Below, one piece after another: positions 31,850-63,754 of a stretch of DNA of 64,000 nt. Positions within the stretch are counted from its first letter, which is position 1; every line of letters begins with the position of its first letter. Both the position numbers and the translations under genes were made by a program. Location: contig JAFVEZ010000047.1 of NCBI GenBank assembly GCA_017475745.1, positions 10,125 through 74,124 on the forward strand, in the 5' to 3' direction. The notes beneath the pieces are model-generated. The model was not told the origin of the DNA. It ran no database searches and saw nothing but the letters and a program-made list of their open reading frames with translations. The DNA is from Selenomonadaceae bacterium. Lineage in GTDB: Bacteria > Bacillota > Negativicutes > Selenomonadales > Selenomonadaceae.

Positions 31850-34117
31850 TTAACTCCTCTTTTCCTCTAATTTTTGTTTGACGAATTGATAAATTTTTTC
31901 TCCGGCTCTTCCGTCCATACTAGCATTAAATTTTCTGTATGTTTCTAATTGCGTTTCTCTATCAAATTTTTTACCGGGCAATTTATTATCTAAAAGTTTT
32001 TTCAAAGTTTGAAATGTTCCTTCATAGCAACCATATGGTTCCCATTCTGTTCGTGCTTTAAATCCACTAGAATATCGTACAACTTCTTCCATATCGAAAG
32101 TAATGTCGATCTTATCAAAGGTTTTGGATTTTAAATCAAACTTATAACACTGTCTATCTGAAGACAAATACCAGAAGAATACTTCATCTTTATCGGGCAA
32201 ATATTTAAACATACCTGTATTTGTGTAACTAAAATAACCATTTTTTATTTTGAATGAAACCTCAAATGGTGTCTCCCACTCTTGTATATGACCTGTTTTT
32301 TTGTCGAGTCTGACGAACATATTACCCCAATATGGAACTAGAAATACCTCATTTTCATCACATATTGCACTCGCAAAAGGTCGCTCATTACAAACAATTC
32401 CTTGTGGAATCATTTGACACTGAAAACCTTGTGGAAGCCCAGAGTATTCTGTAACAGTTCCATCTGTCATATTTAATCTTGTAATAGTTTTTCCTAAATA
32501 TGGCAGAAGCCAAAAAGTTTCACCATCAGGCACCATTGATATAAATCCGCCTTTTGTCGGCTTTTGTGAAGGTAATGTTATATACTGCATTTCGGTAGTT
32601 TCTATATTTACAATCAAAACCGCTCTTTTATTTGGTGAGACAAGAAGCAAATTACCATTCCAAATGCCATATGAATCACGATAAGCATAAGAAGGATTGG
32701 GTTGTACGAAAAAGTCATTAAATCCAGAAATATATTTAATTTCATCATTATGAATATTGTAACGCACCAAATAAGGATAATTATTAGGCACGATGAATAC
32801 ATAATCACCAATATGAATAACTTCTGAGAAAAGATGACGACGATTGTCATTTTGAACTTTTTTCAGTGGGATTTTACGTTCTACTTTGTGATCGCCTATA
32901 ACTAATATATCTTGAGCGTAATATGGAAAAACTAAAACTTTTCTATTAATTTCTAATACATGTTTATAATAATTTCCAGCACCATAATCAGAAAGCGTAC
33001 AATAATAATTATAATGATAGTTAGAATCTGAGGATTTATAGAGTTTATTACCTTGTGTTATAATCCAATTTTTACATTCAGGATGGAATACTCTAATAAA
33101 TATATGTTTTTTATCGTCTTCTGTTGGTAAAGTATTTATATTATTATTCAAGAAAAAAGATGGTTTTCCTGCTACACCAAAAAGAGAAGTTACACTGGTT
33201 TTGATGCCTCCTATATATACATCTGAAATAGCTATAGATTTATCAATATCGGCAGTATCATCATATATTCCTATATCATTTTCTATGAAGTACTGTTTAA
33301 GTTGATTGTAAGCAGTTTGAGCTTCTTGACGCATTGAACCTAAAGTTGCATTTATTAAAGGGTGAGGACGCCATAATAAACAAGCATCATCTCTGCCGGA
33401 AAAAGTTTCAAATACATAACGCATCTTTAATAAAAATCTTTCGGTATCTTGGAGTAATCCGCTCAAACTGGTATTATAGAAGTACACTTTTCTTCCATTT
33501 ATCTTTTCTTTCCATTCTTCTGGAGCTTCAGGTGGATTTTGACACATTTGAATAACTCTATCAAACTTTGGCGACCCAAGTGGTTGGAGTTTTTCAACAG
33601 GAATAGAAGGATCAAAAAATGACCTCATTGCTTCAGATTGGATCATTATGTAATCAGAATTATCATATGAAGGCATGTACTTTTGACCTTCAGACATCAA
33701 ACCTGTAGTAGCATAATAAGGTACATAAATTAGTAATTTCGTCAAGAGTTTCAAATTAGATGAATAGAAAGAAGCGTCAACAGAAGTTACAAGATTATAA
33801 TTGTCATAAGGATTGTGAATGAATATTACATCAGGTTTTAACTTCTTGAGATCGACTTTTTTGTAGTCCAAAACAGGAACATCTTTTGGAAATGAGTCTA
33901 TCTCACAATGCCATTTTGCAACTTTTCTATCTGGTGTGAGGTCTGCATAAGGTATAGGGATAACATAAGTATTGCAATATTCTTTATCCTCAAAAGCTGC
34001 TTGCCAAATACTCTCCAAAGAATCCCACATAGAAGCTTTGTATGGAAGAAAGACTATATTTTTTTTGATGTATTTTGAACTTTTGAAACTTTTAAACCTA
34101 CTTTTTATTTTTGCCAT
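31850..34117 (-). CDS. TagF-like glycerophosphotransferase-like domain fused to a 6-7 bladed beta-propeller-like C-terminal region
   Basis: The N-terminal half has 'LLWRPHPL' and 'ISDVY', which parallel the RLHP and SDYSS motifs of the two TagF paralogues. The C-terminal half has blades of about 45-50 aa ('..(V/F)(F/W)(L/I)(V/L)P(Y/N).....(V/I).R(L/Y)(N/D)'). Confidence 0.5.
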   Translation of the reverse strand: MAKIKSRFKSFKSSKYIKKNIVFLPYKASMWDSLESIWQAAFEDKEYCNTYVIPIPYADLTPDRKVAKWHCEIDSFPKDVPVLDYKKVDLKKLKPDVIFIHNPYDNYNLVTSVDASFYSSNLKLLTKLLIYVPYYATTGLMSEGQKYMPSYDNSDYIMIQSEAMRSFFDPSIPVEKLQPLGSPKFDRVIQMCQNPPEAPEEWKEKINGRKVYFYNTSLSGLLQDTERFLLKMRYVFETFSGRDDACLLWRPHPLINATLGSMRQEAQTAYNQLKQYFIENDIGIYDDTADIDKSIAISDVYIGGIKTSVTSLFGVAGKPSFFLNNNINTLPTEDDKKHIFIRVFHPECKNWIITQGNKLYKSSDSNYHYNYYCTLSDYGAGNYYKHVLEINRKVLVFPYYAQDILVIGDHKVERKIPLKKVQNDNRRHLFSEVIHIGDYVFIVPNNYPYLVRYNIHNDEIKYISGFNDFFVQPNPSYAYRDSYGIWNGNLLLVSPNKRAVLIVNIETTEMQYITLPSQKPTKGGFISMVPDGETFWLLPYLGKTITRLNMTDGTVTEYSGLPQGFQCQMIPQGIVCNERPFASAICDENEVFLVPYWGNMFVRLDKKTGHIQEWETPFEVSFKIKNGYFSYTNTGMFKYLPDKDEVFFWYLSSDRQCYKFDLKSKTFDKIDITFDMEEVVRYSSGFKARTEWEPYGCYEGTFQTLKKLLDNKLPGKKFDRETQLETYRKFNASMDGRAGEKIYQFVKQKLEEKRS

Positions 34118-34149
34118 TTTTAGGGTGTTCCTTTCATAAGCATATTACT

Positions 34150-34178
34150 TTTATATCAAAACCCTCAATGAGTGTCAA
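34150..34178 (-). promoter_or_regulatory. predicted promoter of the glycan locus
   Basis: The minus strand reads TTGACA-N17-TATAAA, immediately after the stop of the upstream coiled-coil gene. There is no intervening terminator. Confidence 0.5.
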
Positions 34179-34181
34179 GAT

Positions 34182-35264
34182 TTACTGGATTTTCTCAGAA
34201 ATCTTTTCAAGTACCTTGACATCTTGTTCACTGAGTATGGTGTACTGTTCCAATGCGGTTTTCATTAATCCATTGTATGCGTCTATTTTAGTTGTAAGTT
34301 TAATAATGTCATCTTTCATGGTCTTGATTGCGGTAGTAACATCAATGGCAGCTTTGTTGACATTGTTATTGAGGTCAATTACCTGTTCATTCGTTTGTGA
34401 AATTCCTTCAGAGATATTTCTATTTACTTCACTGAGATTATCTACACTAGAGGTCATTGAATTTCCACTCTCGGATATATAATCTTTCATATCCCTCAAA
34501 TCGGATAGCTTTTCTGATGCCTCAATCATTGAGATTTTAATATCATCAAGCATATTCAGTTTTTCTAAGGTATCAAGCTTGTCTAATTTGTCCATTTTTT
34601 CGTTTAGAGTTTCCATTGTTTTACTGAGTTGTGTCAAATCTTTTGCAAATGGCGGAGCTTTTAACATCTGCCCAATCACTTGCATTAGTTTTAAACCTGT
34701 TTGAACTGTAGTTTGAGAGGATTCTGTAAGCTCGTTAAGTTTATTAGAATTTTCCTCAAGAGTATTGAATTTTTCTTCAAAGTCTGACATCTTTTCTATC
34801 GTCACTTTTAGCAATTTTGTTTCAGCTTCTGAGTTTTCAGCTAATTTTTGCAAAACTTCTTGATTAGATTTTGAATTCTCAACTAAAATATTTATTACTG
34901 TCTTTAGCTCTGAATTTGATTCTGCAATTTCCATTAGGGTATCGAGTCTGTCTAGTTTATCTCGAATTACTTGAAGTTCCTCTTCCAATCTGTCTGAGCC
35001 ATTACTTATCGCTCTTATTATGGCTTCATCAGAATTATCGCCATCACCCAATTTGTGTCGAAGTTGCTGGAATTGTATCTCTAGGCGCTGATGATTTTCT
35101 TCCTGCGCCATTGCTGCTTGCATTATACTTTTTTTGACAAAGAATGCCGAAATGATAGCACAAAGTGCGCCTATACCGATACCTATCACTTCATCGCCTT
35201 TTATTAAGGCACCTATACTCACTAAGGCAAAGAATACTGCTCCTGCCGTTGAGTTTTCGTTCAT
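34182..35264 (-). CDS. membrane-anchored long coiled-coil protein (unknown function)
   Basis: The N-terminus has hydrophobic segments 'GAVFFALVSIGALI' and 'VIGIGIGALCAIISAFFV'. About 300 aa of heptad-like helical sequence follow ('KLDKLDTLEKLNMLDD'). Its start overlaps the upstream stop (ATGA). Confidence 0.6.
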   Translation of the reverse strand: MNENSTAGAVFFALVSIGALIKGDEVIGIGIGALCAIISAFFVKKSIMQAAMAQEENHQRLEIQFQQLRHKLGDGDNSDEAIIRAISNGSDRLEEELQVIRDKLDRLDTLMEIAESNSELKTVINILVENSKSNQEVLQKLAENSEAETKLLKVTIEKMSDFEEKFNTLEENSNKLNELTESSQTTVQTGLKLMQVIGQMLKAPPFAKDLTQLSKTMETLNEKMDKLDKLDTLEKLNMLDDIKISMIEASEKLSDLRDMKDYISESGNSMTSSVDNLSEVNRNISEGISQTNEQVIDLNNNVNKAAIDVTTAIKTMKDDIIKLTTKIDAYNGLMKTALEQYTILSEQDVKVLEKISEKIQ

Positions 35265-36361
35265 TTTATCATTCCTCTCAATTTATCAATATGCTCCTCA
35301 AGTTCACCCTTAACTGTTTCCAGAACTTCGTTGCAGACAAAGTGCTCATATCTATCAAGAAATTCTTCTTTTATGCCGTAGAAGCGACCACCTGGCCTAT
35401 CAACTAACGATAAGTAAATGTGTTCGCTGCCGGACTCATCATTGTTCAAGAAGTTGTGATATTTTTTTGGTGACATCATATACTGAACGAATCGATCATA
35501 TAACTTTTCCTTCAACTGATTCAGATCAACTTCTACATTCCAGATAAAAGCCGCGAGATTTTTTCCTTGCTCATTAGGATTGTATAAGATTTTTCTATAA
35601 AGGTCAATAGCCTCATATATGCCTGCCCTAATGTTTTTGGTTTTTGGGAATAGGACCTTCTGAGCAGCTTCATTATAACACTTCCAAATGTGAGGGCGGC
35701 CTTTGACATTATCAAAGGAAGTTATCTGGGATTTAACCGAAGGATTTAAACAACCGCTAGTTCTCCAATTTTCAATATACTCTGTATAGTATTCACCGCA
35801 TAAATTTACCTGATTGCGAATTTCCTTCAATTCGTGTTCAATGCGGCGTCTCAAATCAGTCACCAAAGGTCTGTGCCAATGCAAGACTTCTAGTACATCT
35901 GTCTCACTTCTTGCGGCAATCACGTCGCGTCCTTTTCTTTTCAAAACAGCCATTCGATTTGCGGCATCAATAATGGGTTCATAGTCAATATCATCTAGCA
36001 AGTCCATAAGCACAAATAAGGTCATCGGTTCATTTCTACCAAACTCTAAAAGATTTGCCAGATTTTCCGTTGATTCTCTGCCAAGTGGATGAGTTTCAAA
36101 CAATGTACATTTATCAAACTTCTTTAAATCAAAATGTAAATCTTCTCCGTAAGTTGGAACAAATACTTCCATACCAGGCAGCATATTGTATGTTGTCACA
36201 ATTAGTGCCGATTCTTCCTCTTGCAGATTGTATTTGACGGTATCATATTTTATCAATATGGTCTTTTGTCCTTGCCCTGGCAAGTCTTTTAAAGATATCT
36301 TCAAAAGCCAGCATACGAAGAGCCATCTTGAATCGTCACCGAGAAATATCCATTTGATCAT
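35261..36361 (-). CDS. cytoplasmic hypothetical protein (alpha/beta N-terminal half, helical C-terminal half)
   Basis: GAGGGG lies 5 nt before the ATG at 36361 (MIKWIFLGDD...). I recognise no family signature. Confidence 0.55.
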   Translation of the reverse strand: MIKWIFLGDDSRWLFVCWLLKISLKDLPGQGQKTILIKYDTVKYNLQEEESALIVTTYNMLPGMEVFVPTYGEDLHFDLKKFDKCTLFETHPLGRESTENLANLLEFGRNEPMTLFVLMDLLDDIDYEPIIDAANRMAVLKRKGRDVIAARSETDVLEVLHWHRPLVTDLRRRIEHELKEIRNQVNLCGEYYTEYIENWRTSGCLNPSVKSQITSFDNVKGRPHIWKCYNEAAQKVLFPKTKNIRAGIYEAIDLYRKILYNPNEQGKNLAAFIWNVEVDLNQLKEKLYDRFVQYMMSPKKYHNFLNNDESGSEHIYLSLVDRPGGRFYGIKEEFLDRYEHFVCNEVLETVKGELEEHIDKLRGMIK

Positions 36362-36384
36362 CTGCACCCCTCACTCAATGAAAA

Positions 36385-37416
36385 TTATTTTATAAAGCTG
36401 AAATGTTCTTTTAAATCGGATTCTTCTTCAGAATTCTGTACATTGATAAATCCTGCACGAAGTGTCCTTAATTTGTCAGTTGTATTGTGATGCTCTTTAT
36501 TGATGTCGAAGATCATATCAGCTATAGCATTATTAAATTTCACCATTAGTCCAAAAATTCCTGTCTCACGCTTTTCGGCTAAACTGTTATTGACAATCTT
36601 AATTTCTTGCTGCAGCCATTCTTTTGTGAGGTTGTCAACATCTTCGGCACCTCTTGGAATATTCACCCTAGAAAGACCCTGCTTGATTTCAGTTAATCCT
36701 CTATTGTATTGCTTTAATTGGTCGATATTAGCTTGAGAGAGGTCTCTGGGTATTCTGAAGTGTTCTCTTACAAAGCGACTTAAAGTCAAAACATCTGTAT
36801 CTTCATTTTGAAAATATTGATTTACGGCCATAGTATCTATATTACTAAATAAATCTTTCTCTGTTGTTGACTCCAATGAATCTGATGATTGCTCACTTTT
36901 ATCCAAATTATCTGTCTGATTTACTGATTGCTCCATTTTAATGGTTTGTTCATTTACTTTGGAAGTTTTGTTTGGTTCGGTGTATTGAATTGCTATAAAA
37001 CAAATGAAAGCTATAACTGCAAGTGCCATTGAACCGACGAATAAATGAGCAGACAGACGGCGAAAAGTCAACAATGACAACGTAAAGAGTGCTGCAAGTC
37101 CAAAGGCTCCGTACATAGTCACAGGCTGCAGAACATTGACGATATCATAGATTTTTATTTTAGATTCAGTACTGAGAATAGGTCGGGCAGTTGACCAATA
37201 ATCATTCCAATTTTGATCCCAAGTAGATTGATAAACTATAGATAAATATGCCAATCCCAAAAGTATCAGTGAGATAGTAGAAAACAGCCATACCATGTAG
37301 GGTTTAGCCTGAACTTTTTTCTTGATACCTTTTCGTAGCTCGTTGAAGGCTGAAAATGCACTGTAAATGAAAAATATTGATAATATCACCAACATTGTGG
37401 CGATTACATAAAACAT
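36385..37416 (-). CDS. 4-TM membrane protein with a low-complexity linker and an unassigned soluble C-terminal domain
   Basis: There are four hydrophobic helices in the first 150 aa or so. An S/T/E/Q-rich linker follows, then a domain of about 150 aa. AGGAG lies 9 nt before the ATG. Confidence 0.6.
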   Translation of the reverse strand: MFYVIATMLVILSIFFIYSAFSAFNELRKGIKKKVQAKPYMVWLFSTISLILLGLAYLSIVYQSTWDQNWNDYWSTARPILSTESKIKIYDIVNVLQPVTMYGAFGLAALFTLSLLTFRRLSAHLFVGSMALAVIAFICFIAIQYTEPNKTSKVNEQTIKMEQSVNQTDNLDKSEQSSDSLESTTEKDLFSNIDTMAVNQYFQNEDTDVLTLSRFVREHFRIPRDLSQANIDQLKQYNRGLTEIKQGLSRVNIPRGAEDVDNLTKEWLQQEIKIVNNSLAEKRETGIFGLMVKFNNAIADMIFDINKEHHNTTDKLRTLRAGFINVQNSEEESDLKEHFSFIK

Positions 37417-38577: not shown

Positions 38578-40296
38578 TCATGATGAGATGGCATTAATTG
38601 TAATATTGGCCTTCAATGGCAATTTTTCGTCAGGTGTAACGTAGAGAGTGTGTTGATTAAAGAAAATAACAAAGCCAGGCTTAGAGCCAGAAGGCTTCTT
38701 GACGAATTTGCAGGCAGTATAGTCAACAGGTACATTTGAGGAATCTTTATATTGTGAGAAGTAGGCTGCAATCTTTGCTGCCGTTATCAGAGTTTCCTCA
38801 CTTGGTTCAATGCCGCCTGTCTTCAATATTACGTGAGAGCCGGGTATATCCTTAGTGTGAAGCCAAATGTCGTTAGGATCGGCATTTTGACGAATTTTAT
38901 CATTTTGATAGTTATTCTTGCCAACGATAATCTCAGTGCCATCAGCTGCATGGAAGATGTAAGGTTGCGCCTTCTTACTGCCGGCGTTTTTTTTCTTGAC
39001 TTCTTTGAGGTAGCGTCCGGCGATAAGTTCAGCCTTAATCTCGTCTATCTCAGCGAGTGTTGTTGAGGCAGTAAGAGAGTGCTCAACCGTCTCAAGGTAA
39101 GCTATCTCTTCACGACAGAGTTTAATCTGATTATTGATGTACTCAGCAGAGCGCTTGAGTTTGTCATACTTCTTGTAAAAGACCTGGACATTGGCAGCAA
39201 TGGTGATACGTCTGTCAAGCGGAATGGTTATCATCTCTCCGTTCTCGCTATAAATATTGACAACCTCGACCTCATCATCGGCGTGATCTTTAATATTATA
39301 TTGATAAGTCAATAAATTGTCAGCGCGGATTCTCCAATCGTCAGCATTTTCAGCTTCGTTGAGCTCTTTCTCTAGGACGGCGATTTTATTAGTTGCACGA
39401 CGCAGCTCATTTCTAACTAGTTTGCCGAGGACTTCTTTGTCAGGCGGAACGTAAGAACCAATTAGATTATTTGCAGCTTCTAACATCTCAGACAATGAAG
39501 AATAGTTAATTGAGTGTGAAGAATCAAGATGATTTAACGTAAAAGCTGATATTGCCAAAACTTTTTTGTTGCCGTCGAGAATCATACAAGGCATAGGCGA
39601 TTTGCAAGTCTCAACGATATCAACTAAAATCTTACCCAACAAGTTAATATCCTCACCAACTCTGAAGGCAACCTCTTTGGCAGTCGTTGGACCAAAACCT
39701 TGGCAAGTATTCATTATGGCTTTATCGAGTCTTGAGGAATCATCGGATTTTATGCGGTTGACAAGTTCTTCAATGGGCGTCGTAAAAGGATCAAGTTTAT
39801 CTTGAGCGGGTGGCAGTTGATATTCTTGATTCGGAAGGACAGTACGGACGCGGCTGTTATTTGTGCCAATCTTCTTAAGGGCGTCAACTATCACACCACC
39901 ATTAATCAATATCATATTGCTATATTTACCAACTAACTCAACGACAAGAGTCAGAGTCTCAATTTTGCCACTTCCCAAAGTGTCCACATCAATAAATATT
40001 ACTCTATCAACTTCATGCTGATGAATGTTTGCAATTCTACCTGCTTCAAGATTTTTCCTGAGTACCATACAGAAGGTTGGTGGCTCCGGCAAATTCTCCA
40101 AAGGTTTTTTAATTAGCTGCATTGAAGGATTTTGAGGATTGACTGATATTTGCAATAAAAAATTCTCACCAGGCTGCCGTATTTGCAAGCAGATTGAAGT
40201 CTTGCTCTGTTGAGTTATTTTGTCAATGCGCCCGCCGACAAGTGCATTTGCAAGCTCAATGGTCAGCGGACGCATTGAAAATCCGTCCAAATTCAT
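38578..40296 (-). CDS. rqcH: NFACT-family ribosome quality-control protein (RqcH / FbpA-like)
   Basis: The NFACT-N start is 'FDGFSMRPL..EL...L.GGRIDKI'. A coiled-coil middle follows, then the NFACT-R 'IWLHTKDIPGSHVILK'. Confidence 0.85.
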   Translation of the reverse strand: MNLDGFSMRPLTIELANALVGGRIDKITQQSKTSICLQIRQPGENFLLQISVNPQNPSMQLIKKPLENLPEPPTFCMVLRKNLEAGRIANIHQHEVDRVIFIDVDTLGSGKIETLTLVVELVGKYSNMILINGGVIVDALKKIGTNNSRVRTVLPNQEYQLPPAQDKLDPFTTPIEELVNRIKSDDSSRLDKAIMNTCQGFGPTTAKEVAFRVGEDINLLGKILVDIVETCKSPMPCMILDGNKKVLAISAFTLNHLDSSHSINYSSLSEMLEAANNLIGSYVPPDKEVLGKLVRNELRRATNKIAVLEKELNEAENADDWRIRADNLLTYQYNIKDHADDEVEVVNIYSENGEMITIPLDRRITIAANVQVFYKKYDKLKRSAEYINNQIKLCREEIAYLETVEHSLTASTTLAEIDEIKAELIAGRYLKEVKKKNAGSKKAQPYIFHAADGTEIIVGKNNYQNDKIRQNADPNDIWLHTKDIPGSHVILKTGGIEPSEETLITAAKIAAYFSQYKDSSNVPVDYTACKFVKKPSGSKPGFVIFFNQHTLYVTPDEKLPLKANITINAISS

Positions 40297-40454
40297 TACT
40301 AATTCCTTCCTCCTTACAATAGTACGTCAAAACATGATATTGAATACTAACTGTTACACTGCAATTTGTCAAGGAAATTTACAATGAACCTTCTTTAACA
40401 GCAACTAATTTGAAATGCATATCGACTGTATCAATGAATTTTCTGACATCACTA

Positions 40455-40483
40455 TTGATATTTGTCAAAATTAGTGATATGAT
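40455..40483 (+). promoter_or_regulatory. predicted promoter upstream of fliG (extended -10)
   Basis: TTGATA-N17-TATGAT, preceded by TGA. Confidence 0.5.
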
Positions 40484-40498
40484 TAATCATCATTATCA
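40476..40498. promoter_or_regulatory. Fur-box-like operator overlapping the -10 element
   Basis: The sequence is GATATGATTAATCATCATTATCA. It contains a perfect 12-bp palindrome ATGATTAATCAT and a 7-1-7-like TAATCAT-c-ATTATCA. It matches 13 of 19 positions of the classical GATAATGATAATCATTATC box when aligned by eye. Confidence 0.4.
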
Positions 40499-40510
40499 AT
40501 TTAAATTTAT

Positions 40511-40534
40511 AGAAAGCTGGGCTTTCTTTATTTA
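40511..40534 (+). promoter_or_regulatory. terminator-like hairpin in the fliG leader (possible attenuator)
   Basis: AGAAAGC-tgg-GCTTTCT followed by TTATTTA. It lies between the predicted promoter and the RBS. Confidence 0.35.
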
Positions 40535-40564
40535 CAAATCATTGATTGCACAGGAGTGATGAAA

Positions 40565-41614
40565 ATGCCGGCAGCAGCAGCAAGCAGCTCAATGGATATG
40601 TACGGCGATGCCAGTAAAAAATTAACGGCTCATGAAAAGGCAGCTATACTGTTTATCGCAATCGGACCGGAATATTCAGCAAAGTTGTTTCAACATATGG
40701 ACGATGACGAGATTGAAAGTATCACATTAGAAATAGCGAACCATAAACAGGTACCCGTAGAACAGAAAGCAGAGATTATCAGCGAATTTTACCAAATGGC
40801 TATGGCAAGGGATTATATCTCCACCGGTGGTTTGGAATATGCTCAAAAAGTCCTGGAAAATGCACTTGGTTCCGACAAGGCAATGGATATTATCAACCGT
40901 TTGACGACAAGTTTGCAAGTCAGACCTTTCGACTTTCTGCGTAAGACCGACCCTTCACAGCTACTCAACTTCATTCAAAACGAGCACCCGCAGACCATTG
41001 CACTCGTTATGGCTTACCTCGAACCCGATCAAGCAGCAATCGTTATGAGTGGACTTGCCACTGACGTTCAAGCTGACGTGGCAAAGCGTGTTGCAATGAT
41101 GGATAGAACTTCGCCAGATATTATTCGTGAGGTGGAAAGAGTGCTTGAGAGAAAACTGTCTTCAATGATGACCCAAGACTTCACCTCTGCTGGTGGTATT
41201 CCTGCGATTGTCGAAGTCCTCAACCGCGTCGACCGTACAACAGAAAAAACCATTATCGAGACTTTGGAAGTCGACAATCCAGAACTTGCAGAAGAGATCA
41301 AGCGTCTCATGTTCGTCTTCGAGGATATCGTCATGCTGGACGACAGATCGCTCCAGATGGTTCTCCGCGAGGTCGATACAAAGGATTTGTCACTTGCAAT
41401 GAAGGCAACGCCGCCAGAAGTCTCCGAGAAAGTTTACAAGAATATGTCCAAGCGCGCAGCAGATATGTTGCGTGAAGAAATCGAGTATATGGGACCTGTC
41501 AAGATTCGCGACGTTGAAGAGGCACAGCAGAAGGTCGTCAATGTCATTAGAACCCTCGAAGAGAAGGGTGAGATTGTCATTAGCCGCGGTCAAGGTGATG
41601 AGATGATCGTTTAA
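40565..41614 (+). CDS. fliG: flagellar motor switch protein FliG
   Basis: All three FliG domains are present: 'KAAILFIAIGPEYSAKLF', 'EHPQTIALVMAYL' and 'MFVFEDI'. The charged torque-helix region 'SKRAADMLREEIEYMGPVKIRDVEEAQ' is present. AGGAG lies 8 nt before the ATG at 40565. Confidence 0.9.
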   Translation: MPAAAASSSMDMYGDASKKLTAHEKAAILFIAIGPEYSAKLFQHMDDDEIESITLEIANHKQVPVEQKAEIISEFYQMAMARDYISTGGLEYAQKVLENALGSDKAMDIINRLTTSLQVRPFDFLRKTDPSQLLNFIQNEHPQTIALVMAYLEPDQAAIVMSGLATDVQADVAKRVAMMDRTSPDIIREVERVLERKLSSMMTQDFTSAGGIPAIVEVLNRVDRTTEKTIIETLEVDNPELAEEIKRLMFVFEDIVMLDDRSLQMVLREVDTKDLSLAMKATPPEVSEKVYKNMSKRAADMLREEIEYMGPVKIRDVEEAQQKVVNVIRTLEEKGEIVISRGQGDEMIV

Positions 41615-41799
41615 TTCTGCCAAGGTTTATGATGATCGTGCTGATATATACGTTACCTTAATGCATAATTATACTCGTGGTCAATATAAGCAATAGGTGA
41701 TGACGCATGAGCACAGACTGACTTTGCTAAAGCTAAAGAATTGGGTACAACGTTTAAAATTCACTTCAATGTAAATGCATTTAACAAGGTGGTGAAATA

Positions 41800-42606
41800 A
41801 TGTTTAGCAAAATAGTCAGAGTGGCGCAGCTAGAAGAAGAGCCTGTCGTCATTAAGTATTCAAACAACACCAAAAATGTCGACGACACTGAAGAGGAAGA
41901 AAAAAACTCCGGCTTTGATGAGGAAACCTTGAATAATATGCTTGCTGAGATTGCCGCCAAGGAACAGCGCGCCATTCAAAAACTAAAAGATGCTGATACT
42001 CAATCAGAGATAGTTATTCAAGCTGCCAAGAATGAAGGCAAACAAATATTAGATAATGCTAGAGCTGAAGCAGATGAAATGAAGGTTAAGGCTGTTCAGA
42101 GCGGCCACGATGAGGGTTACAAAGACGGGCATAAAGAGGGTATCAAAGCAGCAAAGAAGGAACTGGCAGATTCCATAAAACAGGCAAATGCCAAGGCGGA
42201 GAAGACTCTAAAAGATGCAAAGGCTGCAACGGCGGATTACTTCGTCAAGGCAGAACAAGATATAGCCAATGTGGTTATGCTTGCCATTGAGAAGATACTT
42301 CCACAGCACTTTCTCGACGTGCCACAAGTCGTTCTGCCTGTCGTTCGTGAAGCAATCAAGGTTGTTCGCGATCAGAAGGAAGTCAAAGTTCACGTCTGTC
42401 CTGACAGCTATGATATGGTCTTGATGGCAAGGGCAGAGTTCCAAGGCATGCTCACTGATGGCACTGCTATTTTGGAGGTTATGTCTGATGAGAGCTTGCA
42501 ACCAGGTGATTGCGTCATTGAAACTCCGAATGGTGGCGTTGATGCACGTCTTCTAACTCAAATTGAATTAATGAAAAATTCCATACAAAGTGTCTTGTCT
42601 AAATGA
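41800..42606 (+). CDS. fliH: flagellar assembly protein FliH (FliH/SctL family)
   Basis: The N-terminus is a charged coiled coil. The C-terminus '...VHVCPDSY......PGDCVIETPNGGVDARLLTQIELMK' is typical of FliH. AAGGTGGTG lies before the ATG. Confidence 0.78.
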   Translation: MFSKIVRVAQLEEEPVVIKYSNNTKNVDDTEEEEKNSGFDEETLNNMLAEIAAKEQRAIQKLKDADTQSEIVIQAAKNEGKQILDNARAEADEMKVKAVQSGHDEGYKDGHKEGIKAAKKELADSIKQANAKAEKTLKDAKAATADYFVKAEQDIANVVMLAIEKILPQHFLDVPQVVLPVVREAIKVVRDQKEVKVHVCPDSYDMVLMARAEFQGMLTDGTAILEVMSDESLQPGDCVIETPNGGVDARLLTQIELMKNSIQSVLSK

Positions 42607-43613
42607 TTGTTAAAAGACTGTATCTCCGGGCGGCTATATTGACTATTATCTTGATATTGAGTATGCCAATTACCATTGGTTTCGGTTCTATTGATATTGA
42701 GATAAATATTGTTGTTGAAGAAGTTTCGGCTTTTTTGCAAGGTCACTCAAGTGATTCTCCTAACTCAATGATAATTTTTGATATTCGCGTTCCGCGTATA
42801 CTTTTTGCTGCAATCGCCGGTGCAATTCTCTCACTTACTGGAATGTTAATGCAGACCGTCTCACAAAATTACTTGGCTGATCCCTATATTCTTGGTGTTT
42901 CCTCAGGCGCAGGTATGGGAGCGGTTTTTTGCATTGTTACAGGTATTGCTCAATCCTTTGCGCCTTATGGTGTCTATGTTGGAGCATTTCTCGGCGCGAC
43001 ATTGGCAACTATTGTTGTAGTTCAAATTGCTGGAACGAGCAGCAGTCCAATCAAGCTGGTATTAATAGGTATGGGTATATCAGCACTCTTTTCTGCTTTC
43101 ACGATGCTGGAAATATACGGCTCAAAGAACGAAGCACAAGTCAGAAGTGCAATGTTTTGGTTGATGGGTAGTTTCACCGGTATACAGTGGACTATGGTGC
43201 CGATTGCACTTACCGTCTTGATTGTGTTGATGCTATTCATTTGGTTATTCAGACACGAATTGGACCTAATACTTCTCGGAAGAGAAGAAGCCCAACATCT
43301 TGGTCTATCCACTGAACGCATGCAACAGATGGTTGTTGTTGTCTCTTCGATAGCTATCGCTGTGATTGTCTCAATCGCTGGAATAATAGGATTTATAGGT
43401 CTTGTGATACCTCACATTGCAAGATTTATTGGAGAGTCACGTCATGCCGTTATGCTATGGTTCACGAGTTTGATTGGTGCCTTTGTGATGGTTTGGGCGG
43501 ACGTAATGGCAAGATCTATGTTTAAGCCTGAAGAATTGCCGATTGGAATACTTACTGCCTGTCTCGGTGCTCCAATATTCATGCAAATTATCAATCGACA
43601 GTATAAAAGTTGA
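42603..43613 (+). CDS. iron-complex/cobalamin-type ABC transporter permease (FecCD/BtuC family)
   Basis: 'IRVPRILFAAIAGAILSLTGMLMQ...NYLADPYILGVSSGAG' is present and the protein has about 9-10 TM helices. The ATG overlaps the fliH stop (ATGA). Confidence 0.88.
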   Translation: MIVKRLYLRAAILTIILILSMPITIGFGSIDIEINIVVEEVSAFLQGHSSDSPNSMIIFDIRVPRILFAAIAGAILSLTGMLMQTVSQNYLADPYILGVSSGAGMGAVFCIVTGIAQSFAPYGVYVGAFLGATLATIVVVQIAGTSSSPIKLVLIGMGISALFSAFTMLEIYGSKNEAQVRSAMFWLMGSFTGIQWTMVPIALTVLIVLMLFIWLFRHELDLILLGREEAQHLGLSTERMQQMVVVVSSIAIAVIVSIAGIIGFIGLVIPHIARFIGESRHAVMLWFTSLIGAFVMVWADVMARSMFKPEELPIGILTACLGAPIFMQIINRQYKS

Positions 43614-43700
43614 CTTAAAAGAAAGTGTAAGAGATGATGTTAAATGAATTGCAACTCACTGGCAAAAAGTCAATAAAAAGTATTTGATATTGAAACCGGT

Positions 43701-44459
43701 TTGAATATGACAAACATTATGGAAGTTAAAAATCTGTCGTATGTTATCGGGCAGAAGAAGATTTTAGATGATGTGAATGTTGCGTTCGCTGAAGGCAAGA
43801 TCACTGCAATCATAGGTGCAAATGGCAGCGGTAAGAGTACTTTGATGTCGTTTCTCGGCAAAACGAGAGATTGTTATCAGAACATCTTCTTTCATGGTAG
43901 AGATATAAGCGAAATATCTGCACAGGACTATGCTCTTCAAGTTTCAGTTTTACCTCAACATCAAAAGATGATTGCTGACTTCCACGTTGAAGATGTTATT
44001 GTGATGGGGCGTTTTCCATATAAAAAGAGATTCCGCGACTATACCATTGAAGATTATGCCATTGCCCAGAAGGCAATGAAGCGCGCTGGCATTGCAGAAA
44101 TGGCAAAACGAAAGTTGAGCCAAATGTCCGGCGGAGAGATTCAGCGTGTTCTTATTGCCAAGGCTTTAGCACAGAAGCCGGAATTAATTCTCATGGACGA
44201 GCCGACAAATCACCTTGATGTCAAGTATAAAGTCGCTCTAATGAAAACTTTACAGGAATATGGCAAGACCGTCATCGTCGTTTTACACGATTTATCTCTG
44301 GCCGTTCAGTATTGTGATAATGTTGTAGTTATGGTCAATGGCAGAGTCTTAATTCAAGGCAATACACAAGAAGTAATGCAGACGGATTTACTGGAAGAGA
44401 TATTTGGCGTTCCTTTTGTGAGATTTGAACACAAAGGACGTGTATATATAAATTATTGA
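43701..44459 (+). CDS. iron-complex-type ABC transporter ATP-binding protein (FecE/FhuC-like)
   Basis: Walker A 'GANGSGKST', signature 'MSGGEIQRV', Walker B 'ILMDEP' and H-loop 'VLHDL' are present. Confidence 0.88.
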   Translation: MNMTNIMEVKNLSYVIGQKKILDDVNVAFAEGKITAIIGANGSGKSTLMSFLGKTRDCYQNIFFHGRDISEISAQDYALQVSVLPQHQKMIADFHVEDVIVMGRFPYKKRFRDYTIEDYAIAQKAMKRAGIAEMAKRKLSQMSGGEIQRVLIAKALAQKPELILMDEPTNHLDVKYKVALMKTLQEYGKTVIVVLHDLSLAVQYCDNVVVMVNGRVLIQGNTQEVMQTDLLEEIFGVPFVRFEHKGRVYINY

Positions 44460-44500
44460 AATGTATGAGCAGAGCAAAATATTAATTGGAGGCTTTTAAT

Positions 44501-45505
44501 GTGAAAAAGTTTACAAAATCGTTGAAAAAAGGAATTATCATTGGTATGTCAACAATGGCTCTGTTAGGTTTAGCAGGCTGTGGAGAACAACCTGCCAATA
44601 CTCCCGCAAAGGCACCGACTTCCGTTTCATGGACTGAAATGCTTGACGGTCAAGAAGTCACAAATAAAGTTGATAAAGTGCCTGAAAGAGCAATCTCAAT
44701 GTCACAAGCGACAACGGAGATGATGTTGGCACTCGGCCTAGAGGATAAGATGGTCGGCACGGCAATGAAGGAAGAAGATATTTATCCGCCACTTCAAGAG
44801 TCTTATGACAAAGTTAAGGTACTCTCTGAGAAATGGCCGTCTTATGAAACTTTCATGGCGGAGAAACCGGACTTTGCAACCGGTTGGGAAGTACCCTTCA
44901 CCAAGCGCGGTATCCCTGCTGAGAGAATCACATCACAAAATATTCCGATCTTCATTCCGTCATCAATGCAGAAACTTGATGCTGATCTTGACACCGTCTT
45001 TGAAGATATGTTGAAATATGGCGAGATTTTCGGTGTCCAGGAAGATGCTAAAGTTTGGGTCGACGCTCAAAAAGAAATGTTAAAATCCACACAGGAAAAA
45101 ATCAAGAACTTGCCGAAAAAGAAAGTGTTCATTTATGATTCAAGTGACGGTCAACCCTTTACTGCCTTCAAAGGCTATACGACGAACATATTGAAACTCA
45201 TTGGCGCCGATAATGTCATGGAAAATGCAGGAGTTGACAAGACTTGGGCAGCGACAAGCTGGGAAAGCATAGTTGCGGCTGATCCAGAATACATTATCAT
45301 TGCCGACTACAGCAACGGTGTCCGCAATGATGAGGACTTCCAGCAAAAAGTTGCCGCTATTAGGGAGAATCCACAGCTTCAAAATGTCACTGCCGTGCGC
45401 GAGAACCACTTTGTAAAAGTTAAACTCTCAGAGATCACGCCAGGCGTCCGTACTGTTGAATCATTGAAGCGTCTTGCTGAGGAAATCCACGGTATCAAAG
45501 ATTAA
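44501..45505 (+). CDS. ABC transporter substrate-binding lipoprotein (class III periplasmic binding protein, FecB/BtuF-like)
   Basis: The lipobox is 'LLGLAGC|GE'. 'ERAISMSQATTEMMLALGLEDKMVG' and 'DPEYIIIAD' are typical of Peripla_BP_2. GGAGG lies 8 nt before the GTG at 44501. Confidence 0.8.
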   Translation: MKKFTKSLKKGIIIGMSTMALLGLAGCGEQPANTPAKAPTSVSWTEMLDGQEVTNKVDKVPERAISMSQATTEMMLALGLEDKMVGTAMKEEDIYPPLQESYDKVKVLSEKWPSYETFMAEKPDFATGWEVPFTKRGIPAERITSQNIPIFIPSSMQKLDADLDTVFEDMLKYGEIFGVQEDAKVWVDAQKEMLKSTQEKIKNLPKKKVFIYDSSDGQPFTAFKGYTTNILKLIGADNVMENAGVDKTWAATSWESIVAADPEYIIIADYSNGVRNDEDFQQKVAAIRENPQLQNVTAVRENHFVKVKLSEITPGVRTVESLKRLAEEIHGIKD

Positions 45506-45547
45506 TATACACCTGACTTACAAAAAAATATTGAGGAGGGATTTTCT

Positions 45548-46096
45548 ATGGATAGATTTGTACTGCCTTATAAAGGAATGGAACCGCAAATTGCCAATGG
45601 AGTATTCATAGCACCTACGGCCTCTGTAGTTGGAGACGTAGTTATTGGTACAGGCTCAAGCATTTGGTTTGGTGCTACCGTTCGTGGTGACTTCCAACCG
45701 GTTAGGATTGGCGCTTTTACCAACATACAGGATAACACCACAATACACGTCATGGGTGATGTGCCAACTGAAATTGGTAATTACGTGACAGTAGGGCACA
45801 ACTGTATTGTTCACTGTCGTACGATTGGCAATAACTGTCTGATTGGTATGGGTTCAATCATTCTCGGTTATTCTGAAATTGGTGACAACTGCATAATCGG
45901 TGCTGGTACACTTCTTACGCAACACAAGAAAATCCCTCACAACTGCCTTGTTTATGGCAATCCTGCCAAGATTATCCGTGCCATTCGTGATGATGAGATA
46001 GAGGCTCTTCGTGAATCTGCTATGCACTATTTTAAATGTGCCAGAAACTACGATGCCGAATTTAGAAATTTATATGATAGAAGCGAGGAATTGTAA
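45548..46096 (+). CDS. gamma-carbonic-anhydrase-like hexapeptide-repeat protein (YrdA/PaaY family)
   Basis: 'FIAPTASVVGDVVIG.GSSIWFGATVRGD...I.IG..TNIQDN..IH' shows left-handed beta-helix repeats. Confidence 0.8.
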   Translation: MDRFVLPYKGMEPQIANGVFIAPTASVVGDVVIGTGSSIWFGATVRGDFQPVRIGAFTNIQDNTTIHVMGDVPTEIGNYVTVGHNCIVHCRTIGNNCLIGMGSIILGYSEIGDNCIIGAGTLLTQHKKIPHNCLVYGNPAKIIRAIRDDEIEALRESAMHYFKCARNYDAEFRNLYDRSEEL

Positions 46097-46516
46097 ATGG
46101 AAAGAACTTTAGTATTAATTAAACCAGACGCGATTGCAAATAAGCATATCGGTGACATCATCAAGCACTACGAAAAAGAAGGCTTTCAAGTTGCCGCTAT
46201 GAAATTAATGAAGATGACAAAAGAGATTGCTGCAAAACATTACGCTGAACATATTGGCAAGCCTTTTTACAATGATCTCGTTGAGTTTATGACGGCTGAT
46301 CCGCTCGTCGCTATGGTGCTTACTGGCGAAAATGTTATTGCAAGAGTCAGAGAAGTCAATGGTGCAACCAATCCCGAAAAAGCAGCAGATGGCACGATTA
46401 GAAAACTCTATGCGGATAGTGTCACAAAGAATGCCGTTCACGCTTCCGACAGTTCTGAAAATGCTAAAAGAGAGATTGCCATCTTCTTCAGTGAGATTGA
46501 GATTGTAGGTGAGTAA
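46097..46516 (+). CDS. ndk: nucleoside diphosphate kinase
   Basis: 'ERTLVLIKPDA' and 'NAVHASDS' (catalytic His) are present. Confidence 0.93.
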   Translation: MERTLVLIKPDAIANKHIGDIIKHYEKEGFQVAAMKLMKMTKEIAAKHYAEHIGKPFYNDLVEFMTADPLVAMVLTGENVIARVREVNGATNPEKAADGTIRKLYADSVTKNAVHASDSSENAKREIAIFFSEIEIVGE

Positions 46517-46931
46517 AGTGACCAAATTGGAGGTAGCGGCAGGACTCCACGCAAAAGGCTATAACTGTGCTCAATCGGTTGCCTGTGTGTTTGCCGATGA
46601 TGTCAATATTCCTAAAGATATTCTCTTCAAAGCAACAGAGGGCTTCGGTGCTGGAGTAGGCACAATGGAAGGCATTTGCGGAGCACTTTCCGGTGCGGTT
46701 ATGATTGCTGGTCTCAAAAACAGTACTGCTAATCTTGAACAACCAGATTCAAAGGCTTCCACCATGAAAATCTCAAAACAGCTTATAACTAACTTCAAGG
46801 AGCGTGTTGGCTCAATAACCTGCCGTGAAATTAAAGGCAATAATCCAGAACATAAAGTTCTTTGCTCTTGTGATGATTGCATTAAGAACGGTGTTAAACT
46901 CGTTGAAGAATTTGTGATGCATTGTGATTGA
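46509..46931 (+). CDS. C_GCAxxG_C_C family protein
   Basis: 'GYNCAQSVA' and 'GICGALSGAVM' are present, with 'C...C..C' near the C-terminus. Confidence 0.75.
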   Translation: MSKVTKLEVAAGLHAKGYNCAQSVACVFADDVNIPKDILFKATEGFGAGVGTMEGICGALSGAVMIAGLKNSTANLEQPDSKASTMKISKQLITNFKERVGSITCREIKGNNPEHKVLCSCDDCIKNGVKLVEEFVMHCD

Positions 46932-46951
46932 GATATTGGAATCAATATAAT

Positions 46952-46996
46952 ATATCCTCACTTGTAATAATTTTCACACATGAGGATATTTTTTTG
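46952..46996 (+). terminator. intrinsic terminator ending the fliG-to-GCAxxG co-directional block
   Basis: Stem ATATCCTCA/TGAGGATAT followed by TTTTTTT. Confidence 0.65.
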
Positions 46997-48698: not shown

Positions 48699-49322
48699 AT
48701 GTTTCACACAACTTTTTATGTGAGAAGGCTGCACTCTCTCTGTGGTCTTTTCGTGCTCGGAATGGTCTTATTTGAGCACATCTTCACAAATTCAATGGCA
48801 ATCTTCGGTCCGGAAGCACTCAACGGCGCACTGGAGATGATGGAACTTATTCCAAAACCAATCTTTATGGGTCTTGAGATTGGCGGTATTGCCGTGCCTC
48901 TGCTCTTTCATGCTATCTATGGCATCTATATTGCGCTCCAGGCTAACAACAATCCTGGTCGCTTCGGCTATCTCCGCAACTGGAACTTTGCCCTTCAACG
49001 TTGGACTGCTTGGTTCCTCGTAGCGTTCCTCATTTGGCACGTCGGTTATCTCCGCTTCTACACCAAGGGCATTACCGGTACGCCTATTTCATGGGAATTG
49101 CTCTATAACTATTTCCAAAATCCTCTCGTAGTTATCCTTTATGTCCTCGGAATGTTTGCAGCTATCTTCCATTTCTGCAATGGTATCACGACTTTCTGCA
49201 TGACTTGGGGTATCACAAAGGGACCTCGCTCTCAGAACGTCATCAGCGCTATCAGCATGGGACTTTGTGCTGTTCTTTGCTTGATTACACTGACTTTCAT
49301 GGGCAGCTATCTTGTACGTTAA
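48699..49322 (+). CDS. sdhC: succinate dehydrogenase/fumarate reductase cytochrome b558 subunit
   Basis: It is collinear with B. subtilis SdhC: 'RRLHSL.G', 'HA.YG.YIA' and 'NW.F.LQR.T' are present. It has five TM helices. Confidence 0.88.
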   Translation: MFHTTFYVRRLHSLCGLFVLGMVLFEHIFTNSMAIFGPEALNGALEMMELIPKPIFMGLEIGGIAVPLLFHAIYGIYIALQANNNPGRFGYLRNWNFALQRWTAWFLVAFLIWHVGYLRFYTKGITGTPISWELLYNYFQNPLVVILYVLGMFAAIFHFCNGITTFCMTWGITKGPRSQNVISAISMGLCAVLCLITLTFMGSYLVR

Positions 49323-51201: not shown

Positions 51202-51951
51202 ATGGCTGATAAGAAAGTCAGGTTCGTCATTGAGCGGCAAGACGGACCTAATGATAAACCGTATATCCAAGAATTTGACGTTGATTGGCGCCCAAGTCTC
51301 AACGTCGTTGCAGCATTGATGGAGATTCAGAAGAACCCTGTCACAGTTGATGGCAAGAGAGTCCCGCCGGTCGTTTGGGAATGTAACTGCCTTGAAAAGG
51401 TCTGTGGCGCTTGTATGATGGTCATTAACGGCAAGGCAAGACAGGCCTGCTGCGCTCTGATTGATGAGCTTAAACAACCTATCGAACTCAAGCCTGCTAG
51501 GACATTCCCTGTTATCCGTGATCTGCTGATTGATAGAACGAGAATGTTTGAAGCTCTCAAGAAGATTCAAGGTTGGATTGAGCTGGACGGTTCCTTTGAG
51601 TCCAGAGAAGCTCCTATCCAGAATCCTTACACTGCTCAGACTGCTTATGAAATTTCACACTGCATGACTTGCGGCTGCTGCCTGGAAGCTTGCCCGAATG
51701 TTGGCCCTCAGTCTGACTTCATTGGTCCTGCGCCTACAGTTCAAGCTTATCTCTTCAATCTTCACCCGCTTGGAAAGTTCGATGCACCGAAGAGACTTAA
51801 TGCCCTTATGGAGAAAGGCGGCATCACGAGCTGTGGCAACTCACAGAACTGCGTAGAAGTTTGCCCGAAGTCAATCAAACTCACCACCTATCTCGCACAG
51901 CTCAACCGTGATGTGAATATTCAAGCGCTTAAAAACATCTTCGATAATTAA
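51202..51951 (+). CDS. sdhB: succinate dehydrogenase/fumarate reductase iron-sulfur subunit
   Basis: The Cys clusters are 'CNCLEKVCGACMM', 'CMTCGCCLEAC' and 'CGNSQNCVEVCP'. Confidence 0.92.
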   Translation: MADKKVRFVIERQDGPNDKPYIQEFDVDWRPSLNVVAALMEIQKNPVTVDGKRVPPVVWECNCLEKVCGACMMVINGKARQACCALIDELKQPIELKPARTFPVIRDLLIDRTRMFEALKKIQGWIELDGSFESREAPIQNPYTAQTAYEISHCMTCGCCLEACPNVGPQSDFIGPAPTVQAYLFNLHPLGKFDAPKRLNALMEKGGITSCGNSQNCVEVCPKSIKLTTYLAQLNRDVNIQALKNIFDN

Positions 51952-54355: not shown

Positions 54356-54961
54356 GTGAAAGTTGGTATAATGGGCGGAACGTTTGATCCGATTCATACT
54401 GGTCACTTGGTGACAGCCGAAGCAGTCCGTGACGCCCTCGATCTCGATGAGGTATTGTTCATACCTTCAGCCAGGCCACCTCACAAGCACAGACGCGACA
54501 TCACCTCTCCGGAGCATAGGCTTGCAATGACTGTACTTGCAACATGTTTTAATCCAAAATTTCGCGTTTCGTCGATTGAGATTATCCGTACGGGGCCTTC
54601 ATACGCTGTTGATACTATTGACGCTCTCAAGCGTGAGTATGAGGTTGGCACGGAGTTTTACTTCATTCTCGGTGCTGACGCCGCGTTGGAGCTTGCAACT
54701 TGGCACAATGCTCATCAACTCATTGAGAAATGTCACTTCATTGCCGCCACTCGTGAGGGTACTGATATTGACATTGAAGCAGTTGAGACGCAATTCGGAG
54801 ATATTGGGCGCGGACGACTTCAGAGAGTAGAGACACCGAAGATTGAGATATCTTCAACTGATATTCGTGACAAGCTTCGGCGTGGTCGCTCAATTCGATA
54901 CTTGGTGCCCGATACCGTTGAAGCTTATATCAGAAAGGAGCAGCTTTATTATGACGATTGA
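54356..54961 (+). CDS. nadD: nicotinate-nucleotide adenylyltransferase
   Basis: 'GIMGGTFDPIHTGH' and 'ISSTDIR' are present. GTG start 7 nt after GGAGG. Confidence 0.92.
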   Translation: MKVGIMGGTFDPIHTGHLVTAEAVRDALDLDEVLFIPSARPPHKHRRDITSPEHRLAMTVLATCFNPKFRVSSIEIIRTGPSYAVDTIDALKREYEVGTEFYFILGADAALELATWHNAHQLIEKCHFIAATREGTDIDIEAVETQFGDIGRGRLQRVETPKIEISSTDIRDKLRRGRSIRYLVPDTVEAYIRKEQLYYDD

Positions 54962-63627: not shown

Positions 63628-63754
63628 AAAATAAATGAGAGACCGCCAAAACAGGAAGTCTCTCAAATTTAAAATCCCTACGTTGGCATTATCCAAATCA
63701 GGTTTGGTCGAAGGTCGCACCTTCCTCTCAGCCTGTAACACAAGCTCCCATATA
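63628..63754 (-). promoter_or_regulatory. TPP (THI-box) riboswitch with terminator expression platform
   Basis: The minus strand reads 'GGGAGC..GGCUGAGAGG..ACC..AACCUGAUUUGGAUAAUGCCAACGUAGGGAU'. A hairpin GAGAGAC/GUCUCUC plus AUUUAUUUU follows, then the RBS GAGGUG and the thiG ATG. Confidence 0.88.

Follow-up and report, generated by a model that had tools for sequence, protein, structure and literature searches.

Gene content of the array

We analyzed a 64-kb stretch of DNA from a Selenomonadaceae bacterium (hereafter, the window), in which the flagellar genes fliG and fliH are found at the head of a gene array that continues with a three-gene ATP-binding cassette (ABC) importer. In total, eight same-strand genes are packed in positions 40556-46931, as established from the translations of open reading frames (ORFs) and from Pfam and NCBIfam profile searches (Table 1). 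Their products belong to ordinary, known protein families, and it is the gene order that is unusual and conserved as a trait of one clade. The reading that we favor, and hold to be probable, is that fliG and fliH are ordinary, functional flagellar genes displaced from their operon, which carry the genes of a corrinoid importer as hitch-hiking cargo and whose products have no partnership with that importer.

The FliG protein operates with FliF, FliM, and MotA, and its gene normally follows fliF. The fliG ORF opens with a GTG codon at 40556, and its probable start is the ATG at 40565 (349 aa), located 8 nt after an AGGAG; the same start is called in the annotation of an independent scaffold, L091 (the loci retrieved in this work are designated by L numbers). 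The protein matches FliG_N (PF14842, 150 bits), FliG_M (PF14841, 118 bits), and FliG_C (PF01706, 156 bits), scores 451 bits against TIGR00207 (cutoff 226.7), and contains the NEHPQT (EHPQ) and LMFVFED (MFVF) motifs. The alignment of its middle and C-terminal domains with FliG of T. maritima (1LKV) is free of gaps, also in the torque-helix region KNMSKRAADMLREEIEYMGPVKIRDVEEAQQK. The product of the next gene scores 56 bits against PF02108 (cutoff 24.1) and 27.9 bits against PF06635 (cutoff 23.3), falls below the NCBIfam equivalog cutoff of TIGR03825 (FliH_bacil; 106 vs. 148.9 bits), and has no sequence match in PDB. FliH is a fast-evolving protein, and its orthology is supported by position, since the corresponding gene is located between fliG and fliI in L097, L088, and the L089 array. 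An exact-sequence look-up of the window FliH was empty; the deposited copies differ by one residue.

These results bear out the initial annotation, made from the sequence alone, which had recognized a well-conserved FliG with the EHPQ, MFxF, and torque-helix features followed by a canonical FliH; the FliG_N, FliG_M, FliG_C, and FliH families are all found. Its description of the junctions also stands: the TGA stop of fliH overlaps the ATG of the permease gene by 4 nt (ATGA, 42603-42606), the ATPase and lipoprotein genes follow on the same strand, and no terminator beyond the level of shuffled sequences is found inside the array before 46952, where a hairpin forms a plausible intrinsic terminator, the first convincing one of the array. 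The three genes that follow the importer are not found at this position in relatives and probably share the array transcript. A small gene after the binding-protein gene of locus L082 was considered as a homologue of the window hexapeptide protein and rejected, the similarity being insignificant.

The divergent rqcH gene marks the upstream breakpoint, relatives having fliF in that place. The region between rqcH and fliG has no detectable homology to any relative locus fetched, and the fliG-fliH spacer contains no Rfam match and no consensus terminator; in relatives, fliG and fliH overlap here or are separated by a short gap or by 1 to 4 cargo genes. The Pfam annotation covered about 58 of the larger ORFs of the window, with the ORFs at 48699-49322, 51202-51951, 54843-55523, 59262-59834, and 60747-61511 lying outside the scan. 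Among the scanned ORFs no other flagellar family was found, their functions being housekeeping ones, and tblastn with FlgB, FlgC, FliE, FliF, FliI, FliJ, and FliK of a relative matched only FliG and FliH in the window. The pair is thus isolated within 64 kb, as had been proposed from the absence of adjoining fliF and fliI.

Table 1. Genes, intergenic regions, and sequence motifs of the fliG-fliH array and its upstream region (window coordinates; a dot marks features without strand)
Feature	Position	Strand	Evidence or remark
rqcH/NFACT	38578..40296	-	Pfam NFACT_N 377 bits; divergent from fliG
Divergent intergenic region and fliG leader	40297..40564	.	AT-rich, 29% GC
Promoter-like TTGACA-17-TAGTAT, rqcH side	40372-40344	-	motif scan
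Sigma-70-type promoter-like TTGATA-N17-TATGAT	40455..40483	+	10/12 match, TG before -10
Fur-like AT-rich sequence (putative)	40476..40498	.	contains 12-bp palindrome; at or near chance
Leader hairpin and T-rich tract	40511..40527	+	7-bp stem, -6.5 kcal/mol, weak
Palindrome AATCATTGATT	40537..40547	.	11-bp; P ~0.43 in matched Markov sequences, chance level
fliG, flagellar rotor/switch protein	40565..41614	+	Pfam, TIGR00207, 1LKV alignment
fliG-fliH spacer, 185 bp	41615..41799	.	weak promoter-like site only, 9/12
fliH, regulator/stator of flagellar export ATPase	41800..42606	+	PF02108
Single FecCD/BtuC-type permease	42603..43613	+	PF01032 287 bits
Importer ABC ATPase	43701..44459, start probably 43707	+	PF00005 103 bits
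Class III substrate-binding lipoprotein	44486..45505, start probably 44501	+	Peripla_BP_2 PF01497 82 bits, LAGC lipobox
Three tightly packed genes: hexapeptide gamma-carbonic-anhydrase-like protein, ndk, C_GCAxxG_C_C protein	45548..46931	+	profile searches
Probable intrinsic terminator, ATATCCTCA ... TGAGGATAT then T7	46952..46996	+	-11.7 kcal/mol

Flagellar operons of related genomes

The best genome matches are rumen Selenomonadaceae, with FliG 88% identical to that of a sheep rumen metagenome-assembled genome and 86% identical to that of Selenomonas sp. ND2010. A FliG-based search retrieved 80 loci, with one genome per species. All of these FliG-fetched loci that lie outside the clade described below and have enough flanking sequence show the order flgB-flgC-fliE-fliF-fliG-fliH-fliI-fliJ, and none of the 80 has the importer after fliH or rqcH before fliG. 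A search with FliH reached a closer clade from rumen-type metagenomes (about 19 clusters, 79-90% identity), and several members of this clade have the importer inside the flagellar operon. In L082, L083, and L084, the order is flgB-flgC-fliE-fliF-fliG-fliH followed by the FecCD permease, ABC ATPase, and substrate-binding protein (PBP) genes, and then by unrelated genes; the window FliG and FliH are 98.9% and 89% identical to those of L082 at the amino acid level. In L089 and L090, to which the window FliG and FliH are 97.7% and 87% identical, one gene separates fliF from fliG and four genes separate fliG from fliH, and the importer again follows fliH, with the same ATGA overlap as in the window; in L089 the same strand continues after the PBP gene with a cation-efflux gene and two small genes, after which fliI resumes. 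Loci L095 and L096 carry fliF-fliG-fliH-FecCD-ABC with a 4-nt fliH-permease overlap, and in L116 a spacer of ~360 bp lies between fliH and FecCD. The fliH-permease junction, the lack of which in relatives the initial annotation had counted against its idea, is therefore kept in at least five lineages, but it is there situated within flagellar operons. The location of the importer after fliH inside flgB-to-fliH operons, together with the resumption of fliI in L089, identifies the importer as inserted cargo.

The slot after fliH is occupied by other genes elsewhere in the clade: L085 has a gene for an MmeI-type restriction enzyme there, L088 has a small ORF and a PIN toxin gene with fliI after them, and L086 has unrelated metabolic genes, one of which encodes a metalloenzyme. 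Further operon breaks are found after fliG in L001 and L008 and after fliI in L099. Within this clade, the operon thus looks like a hotspot for both insertions and breaks.

Compared with the canonical basal-body operon, as represented by Selenomonas sp. ND2010 (L002), S. sputigena (L015), and the codY-linked locus L097, the window fliG and fliH are orthologous and keep their order, and the window FliG is 80-87% identical to that of the canonical-order relatives L002 and L097, versus the near-identity to L082, in which the importer takes the place of fliI. The window differs from this operon in the lack of flanking fliF and fliI, in the length of the fliG-fliH spacer, in the non-flagellar genes that follow, and in a sigma-70-type promoter that the pair apparently has of its own. 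Two other known situations are comparable in part: flagellar genes of Helicobacter and Campylobacter are scattered in small groups among housekeeping genes, and glycosylation islands place non-flagellar cargo inside flagellar clusters. In contrast to both, dispersal here is recent and restricted to one clade, other family members keeping the long operon, and the cargo (importer, restriction, toxin, and unknown genes) lies between the core genes fliF to fliI.

Several further features of these loci were recorded. Many non-flagellar genes lie between fliF, fliG, fliH, and fliI in L089 (3881-9966 and 13712-15278), L085 (5222-9989), and L088 (8510-11428); they encode, among others, proteins of 239-550 aa without a Pfam match, an NTP-transferase-like protein, a HAD hydrolase, a DUF697 GTPase, a PIN toxin pair, a cation-efflux protein, and a CutA-like protein. 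The unknown proteins and the HAD hydrolase encoded between fliG and fliH are common to L089 and L085 (64-68% identity). No remnants of the cargo genes known from relatives were detected in the window by tblastn. A small protein of 104-116 aa without a Pfam match is encoded after the importer in L082 (13698-14048) and immediately before fliI in L089 (14964-15278), with 66% identity between the two, and may represent an unrecognised flagellar-associated gene. In L099 (68-2846), a fliI gene 96% identical to that of L089 is directly followed by a pyruvate kinase gene, not by fliJ.

Substrate of the importer

The importer had initially been described as an iron-complex importer, a name that is only a superfamily label. 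Its matches to the NCBIfam models (BtuC, FecD, FhuB, heme, and 'F420-0') are all below the curated cutoffs: for the equivalogs, the scores and cutoffs are 223 and 334 bits for BtuC, 125 and 281 bits for BtuD, and 47 and 234 bits for BtuF, and the iron-specific models are far below theirs. The best PDB match of the binding protein is 4n01_A (E 1e-139), for which no ligand is named; the ShuT, BtuF, and CeuE structures match weakly.

A permease search of metagenome contigs recovered three-gene cassettes that are orthologous to that of the window but are not linked to flagellar genes (FecCD 64-85% and PBP 72-83% identical to the window proteins). A cobalamin riboswitch (RF00174, 95-103 bits) precedes the permease gene in L103, L104, L105, and L106. 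In L102 and L107, the cassette stands at the end of a run of same-strand genes comprising MeaB, methionine sulfoxide reductase, and small ORFs, and in L107 also methylmalonyl-CoA mutase. An Rfam scan found no cobalamin riboswitch in the window or in the flagellar-linked loci L082, L089, L090, L095, and L116. Taken together, the single permease gene and the linkage of the orthologues to riboswitches and to mutase and MeaB genes speak for corrinoid uptake, and the substrate is most likely a corrinoid (vitamin B12) rather than iron; the iron label is not supported. As a side observation, a match to a group II intron domain (45 bits) is located on the minus strand of L102 (5214-5290), just after the binding-protein gene of the orthologous cassette.

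Similar to BtuCD-BtuF, the type II ABC importer of vitamin B12, the window encodes a single FecCD/BtuC-type permease, which implies a homodimer, together with one ATPase and a Peripla_BP_2 binding protein of class III, and its orthologous cassettes have either cobalamin riboswitches, as in the riboswitch-regulated btuFCD operons of Firmicutes, or the methylmalonyl-CoA mutase/MeaB linkage. It differs from that system in lacking the riboswitch, in falling below the E. coli BtuC and BtuF equivalog cutoffs, and in being embedded after fliH. The FhuBCD, FecBCDE, and HmuTUV systems, which are Fur-regulated importers of ferric siderophores or heme, share the same superfamilies of permease, ATPase, and binding protein, and a Fur-like AT-rich palindromic sequence lies near the window promoter; however, the Fur score is close to background, no outer-membrane receptor or TonB system was found nearby, and the orthologues are found in a regulatory context indicative of B12.

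Partner genes and proposed history of the locus

A 53-kb contig, L094, comes from the same metagenomic sample as two contigs of the window strain (L081 and L092). On this contig, an amino-acid permease gene comes directly after flgB-flgC-fliE-fliF; fliG is absent, and tblastn found no fliG remnant after fliF. Its FliF ranks the relatives by identity in the order L082, L089, L095, L085, L086, L088, L097, which is also the order given by the window FliG and FliH. L094 is what would be expected of the other half of the fliF/fliG break, and probably belongs to the same genome. In a search with FliI, clusters at 90% identity merged species, so that the fliI of the window species was not isolated; the L097 locus recovered in this way is canonical. 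Nearly complete flagellar gene sets have been reported in four genome bins of Quinella, also a rumen member of Selenomonadaceae (PMC9585023). A literature search found no paper describing the gene arrangement reported here.

The following history would account for these observations. In the ancestor of a rumen-type Selenomonadaceae clade, a three-gene type II ABC importer cassette would have been inserted between fliH and fliI of the flgB-flgC-fliE-fliF-fliG-fliH-fliI-fliJ operon; the cassette presumably arrived without a riboswitch, and the start of its permease gene became fused to the stop of fliH. In the window lineage, fliF would then have been replaced upstream by the divergent rqcH and a new AT-rich promoter region, and fliI downstream by housekeeping genes. 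FliG would still act as a rotor protein on FliF, and FliH with FliI, both partners being encoded elsewhere in the genome. The importer would be merely co-transcribed, and probably translationally coupled to fliH, from the sigma-70-type promoter at ~40455-40483, with no physical partnership with FliG or FliH.

Several points weigh against this reconstruction. The window lacks a cobalamin riboswitch, the ligand of 4n01 is not named, and all NCBIfam equivalog cutoffs are missed, so the substrate is assigned through guilt by association via orthologues that are 72-83% identical. The presence of fliF, fliI, and other flagellar genes in this genome is an indirect deduction from L094, from the relatives, and from the selection described below. 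Finally, the fliH-permease junction survived synonymous saturation while neighbouring junctions broke, and the coupling could thus be selected and not neutral.

The last point is the core of an adaptive explanation, according to which corrinoid uptake lost its riboswitch and was wired into the basal-body operon, uptake rises together with motility during foraging, and selection keeps the coupling of fliH and the permease gene. The ATGA junction is retained in the window, in L089/L090, and in L095/L096, with near-adjacency in L082, over a period in which the fliF/fliG, fliG/fliH, and importer/fliI junctions were repeatedly broken or invaded, and the riboswitch is present in free-standing orthologues and was not found in the flagellar-linked copies scanned. 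However, the unrelated cargo after fliH in L085, L088, and L086 argues for an insertion hotspot rather than a functional pairing, the ~360-bp spacer of L116 uncouples the two genes, and the flagellar-linked permease gene of L095 and L096 has an in-frame stop at codon 39. We regard this explanation as quite unlikely. A combined version, in which the B12 importer was captured by the flagellar operon and its coupling to fliH was selected for co-expression with motility, while the fliF-to-fliI region is a hotspot for tolerated cargo, is rather unlikely as well. The stop codon in the permease gene (L095:13800-14812, and L096) is found in contigs of two samples and could reflect a pseudogene or a recoding event.

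Selective constraint on fliG and fliH

Between the window and L082, FliG shows about 4 differences in 349 residues; the proportion of synonymous differences (pS) is 0.61 and that of nonsynonymous differences (pN) is 0.016, and the ratio of nonsynonymous to synonymous divergence (dN/dS) is ~0.013. For FliH, pN is 0.084 and pS is 0.80 (saturated), and for the importer genes dN/dS is 0.03-0.07. The low dN/dS of FliG and its intact FliF-binding N-terminal domain argue against both decay and re-use, and the constraint appears to be that expected of a working rotor protein. A flagellar system is evidently present in this clade and probably in this genome.

An explanation by loss of motility, in which fliG and fliH are decaying leftovers carried in a transporter operon, draws on the separation of the pair from every other flagellar gene in 64 kb and on the heavy fragmentation of the flagellar operons of this clade. 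Both ORFs, however, are intact, all motifs and domains are retained, and the purifying selection on the two proteins, strong in the case of FliG, has acted across synonymous divergence that is near saturation for FliG and saturated for FliH, which makes such a relic very unlikely. Displaced and functional flagellar genes with importer cargo remain the favored reading.

Regulatory signals and the proposed link to iron uptake

The initial annotation had described a promoter ahead of fliG overlapped by a Fur-like operator, as well as two palindromes and a terminator-like hairpin in the leader. All of these motifs are present, and the TTGATA-N17-TATGAT sequence is the best plus-strand promoter-like match ahead of fliG, so that the array promoter may be placed at ~40455-40483. 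No sigma-28-type promoter was found upstream of fliG or fliH, no plus-strand promoter-like site of at least 9/12 was found in 41669-43610, and the terminator-like sites inside the array are not above the level of shuffled sequences (the scan gave 3 such sites vs. 5.1 in shuffles). No internal promoter that would uncouple the importer from fliG and fliH, an outcome considered beforehand, was thus detected. Given the lack of an internal promoter and of a terminator before 46952, co-transcription from fliG through the last gene is plausible; judged by these signals, the genes probably constitute one same-strand transcription unit ending near 46952, with fliH and the permease gene probably translationally coupled.

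The regulatory motifs themselves are at or near chance level. The Fur-like sequence overlaps the -10 element of the best promoter and contains the perfect 12-bp palindrome ATGATTAATCAT (40479-40490), which has P ~0.12 in Markov sequences of equal length and composition; 20 perfect palindromes of this length occur across the window. The Fur-like sequence scores 13/19 when compared with the E. coli box (P ~0.25), and 54 window positions score 13 or more; against the B. subtilis 7-1-7 box it scores 12/14 (P ~0.017, with a consensus that is not genome-specific), and the unrelated IleRS/PNP intergenic region (18360-18444) equals this score. The Fur-like match in the leader is thus at or near background. 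When the region upstream of fliG and the spacers, including the one between fliG and fliH, were compared by blastn with every locus fetched, the only matches were to contigs of the same strain, which precludes phylogenetic footprinting of the Fur-like box. A CodY box in the leader was considered and rejected, its 11/15 matches being at chance (P ~0.47). No riboswitch or other RNA was found by Rfam in 40250-42000. Another perfect 12-bp palindrome, TAAATGCATTTA (41772-41783), is located just upstream of the fliH ribosome-binding site; it is also 1 of the 20 and may well be due to chance.

The most far-reaching proposal of the initial annotation was that FliG and FliH had been re-used in a proton-motive-force-driven, Fur-regulated iron-uptake machine of a diderm, by analogy of MotA and ExbB. 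The tight coupling of fliH to a FecCD-family permease gene and the 12/14 match to the B. subtilis box over the -10 element are the observations in its favor. ABC importers run on ATP and not on the proton-motive force, however, and the scan of ~58 ORFs of the window with Pfam turned up no TonB, ExbB, ExbD, Mot (including MotA), or TonB-dependent receptor families. The orthologues of the pair are located in flgB-to-fliH operons, and the window FliG, with its FliF-binding FliG_N domain fully retained, shares all but 1.1% of its residues with the FliG encoded in one of these operons. With the Fur 19-mer score at background, the 7-1-7 score matched by an unrelated intergenic region, and orthologous cassettes preceded by B12 riboswitches, the proposal is highly improbable. 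The pair is isolated in the window, as had been claimed, but the term orphan, in the sense of re-use, is not supported, since the block follows flgB-flgC-fliE-fliF in the closest relatives.

Reproducibility of the layout

Metagenome assemblies made independently from three samples show the same layout; L081 and L092 come from one of these samples, and L091 and L093 from one each. The 76.8-kb scaffold L091 spans rqcH-fliG-fliH-permease-ATPase-PBP-hexapeptide-ndk, with the upstream region and spacers 100% identical to those of the window, and the rqcH-fliG junction is found in L091, L092, and L093, of which L092 and L093 cover rqcH and the beginning of fliG. L081 extends from fliG through fumarate reductase genes and shows one single-nucleotide polymorphism in 1750 bp relative to the window. 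An assembly or binning chimera joining a flagellar fragment to an unrelated transporter locus, which might be suspected from the break of one sample assembly inside fliG (L081 starts and L092 ends there), is refuted by the independent assemblies L091, L093, and L081 and is practically negligible; the break is explained by a co-occurring species in that sample (L089), the FliG of which is 98% identical.

Other features of the window

The only Rfam match in the window is a TPP riboswitch on the minus strand (63658-63761, 62 bits), located upstream of thiG (62849-63616) and thiC (61514-62821), as expected for thiamine biosynthesis genes. Four consecutive large ORFs on the minus strand (31850-37416; 755, 360, 368, and 343 aa) lack a significant Pfam match; they are flanked by a 3D-domain protein and by a glycerophosphotransferase/glycosyltransferase cluster, and are kept in L091 and L092. 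A phage-type integrase gene (58120-59196, plus strand) directly follows the gene for anthranilate synthase component I (56600-58105), in an apparent trp-related run.

Implications

The analysis removes the lead that flagellar rotor proteins have been recruited to an iron-uptake machine. The associated transporter is relabelled as a probable corrinoid importer, which is relevant to rumen Selenomonadaceae, some relatives of which have a gene for the B12-dependent methylmalonyl-CoA mutase beside the same cassette. The split of the operon makes one ask by what means the dosage and hierarchy of flagellar genes are preserved in these bacteria, in which a normally rigid core flagellar operon has been repeatedly invaded and fragmented within one clade while the constraint on FliG has been kept.

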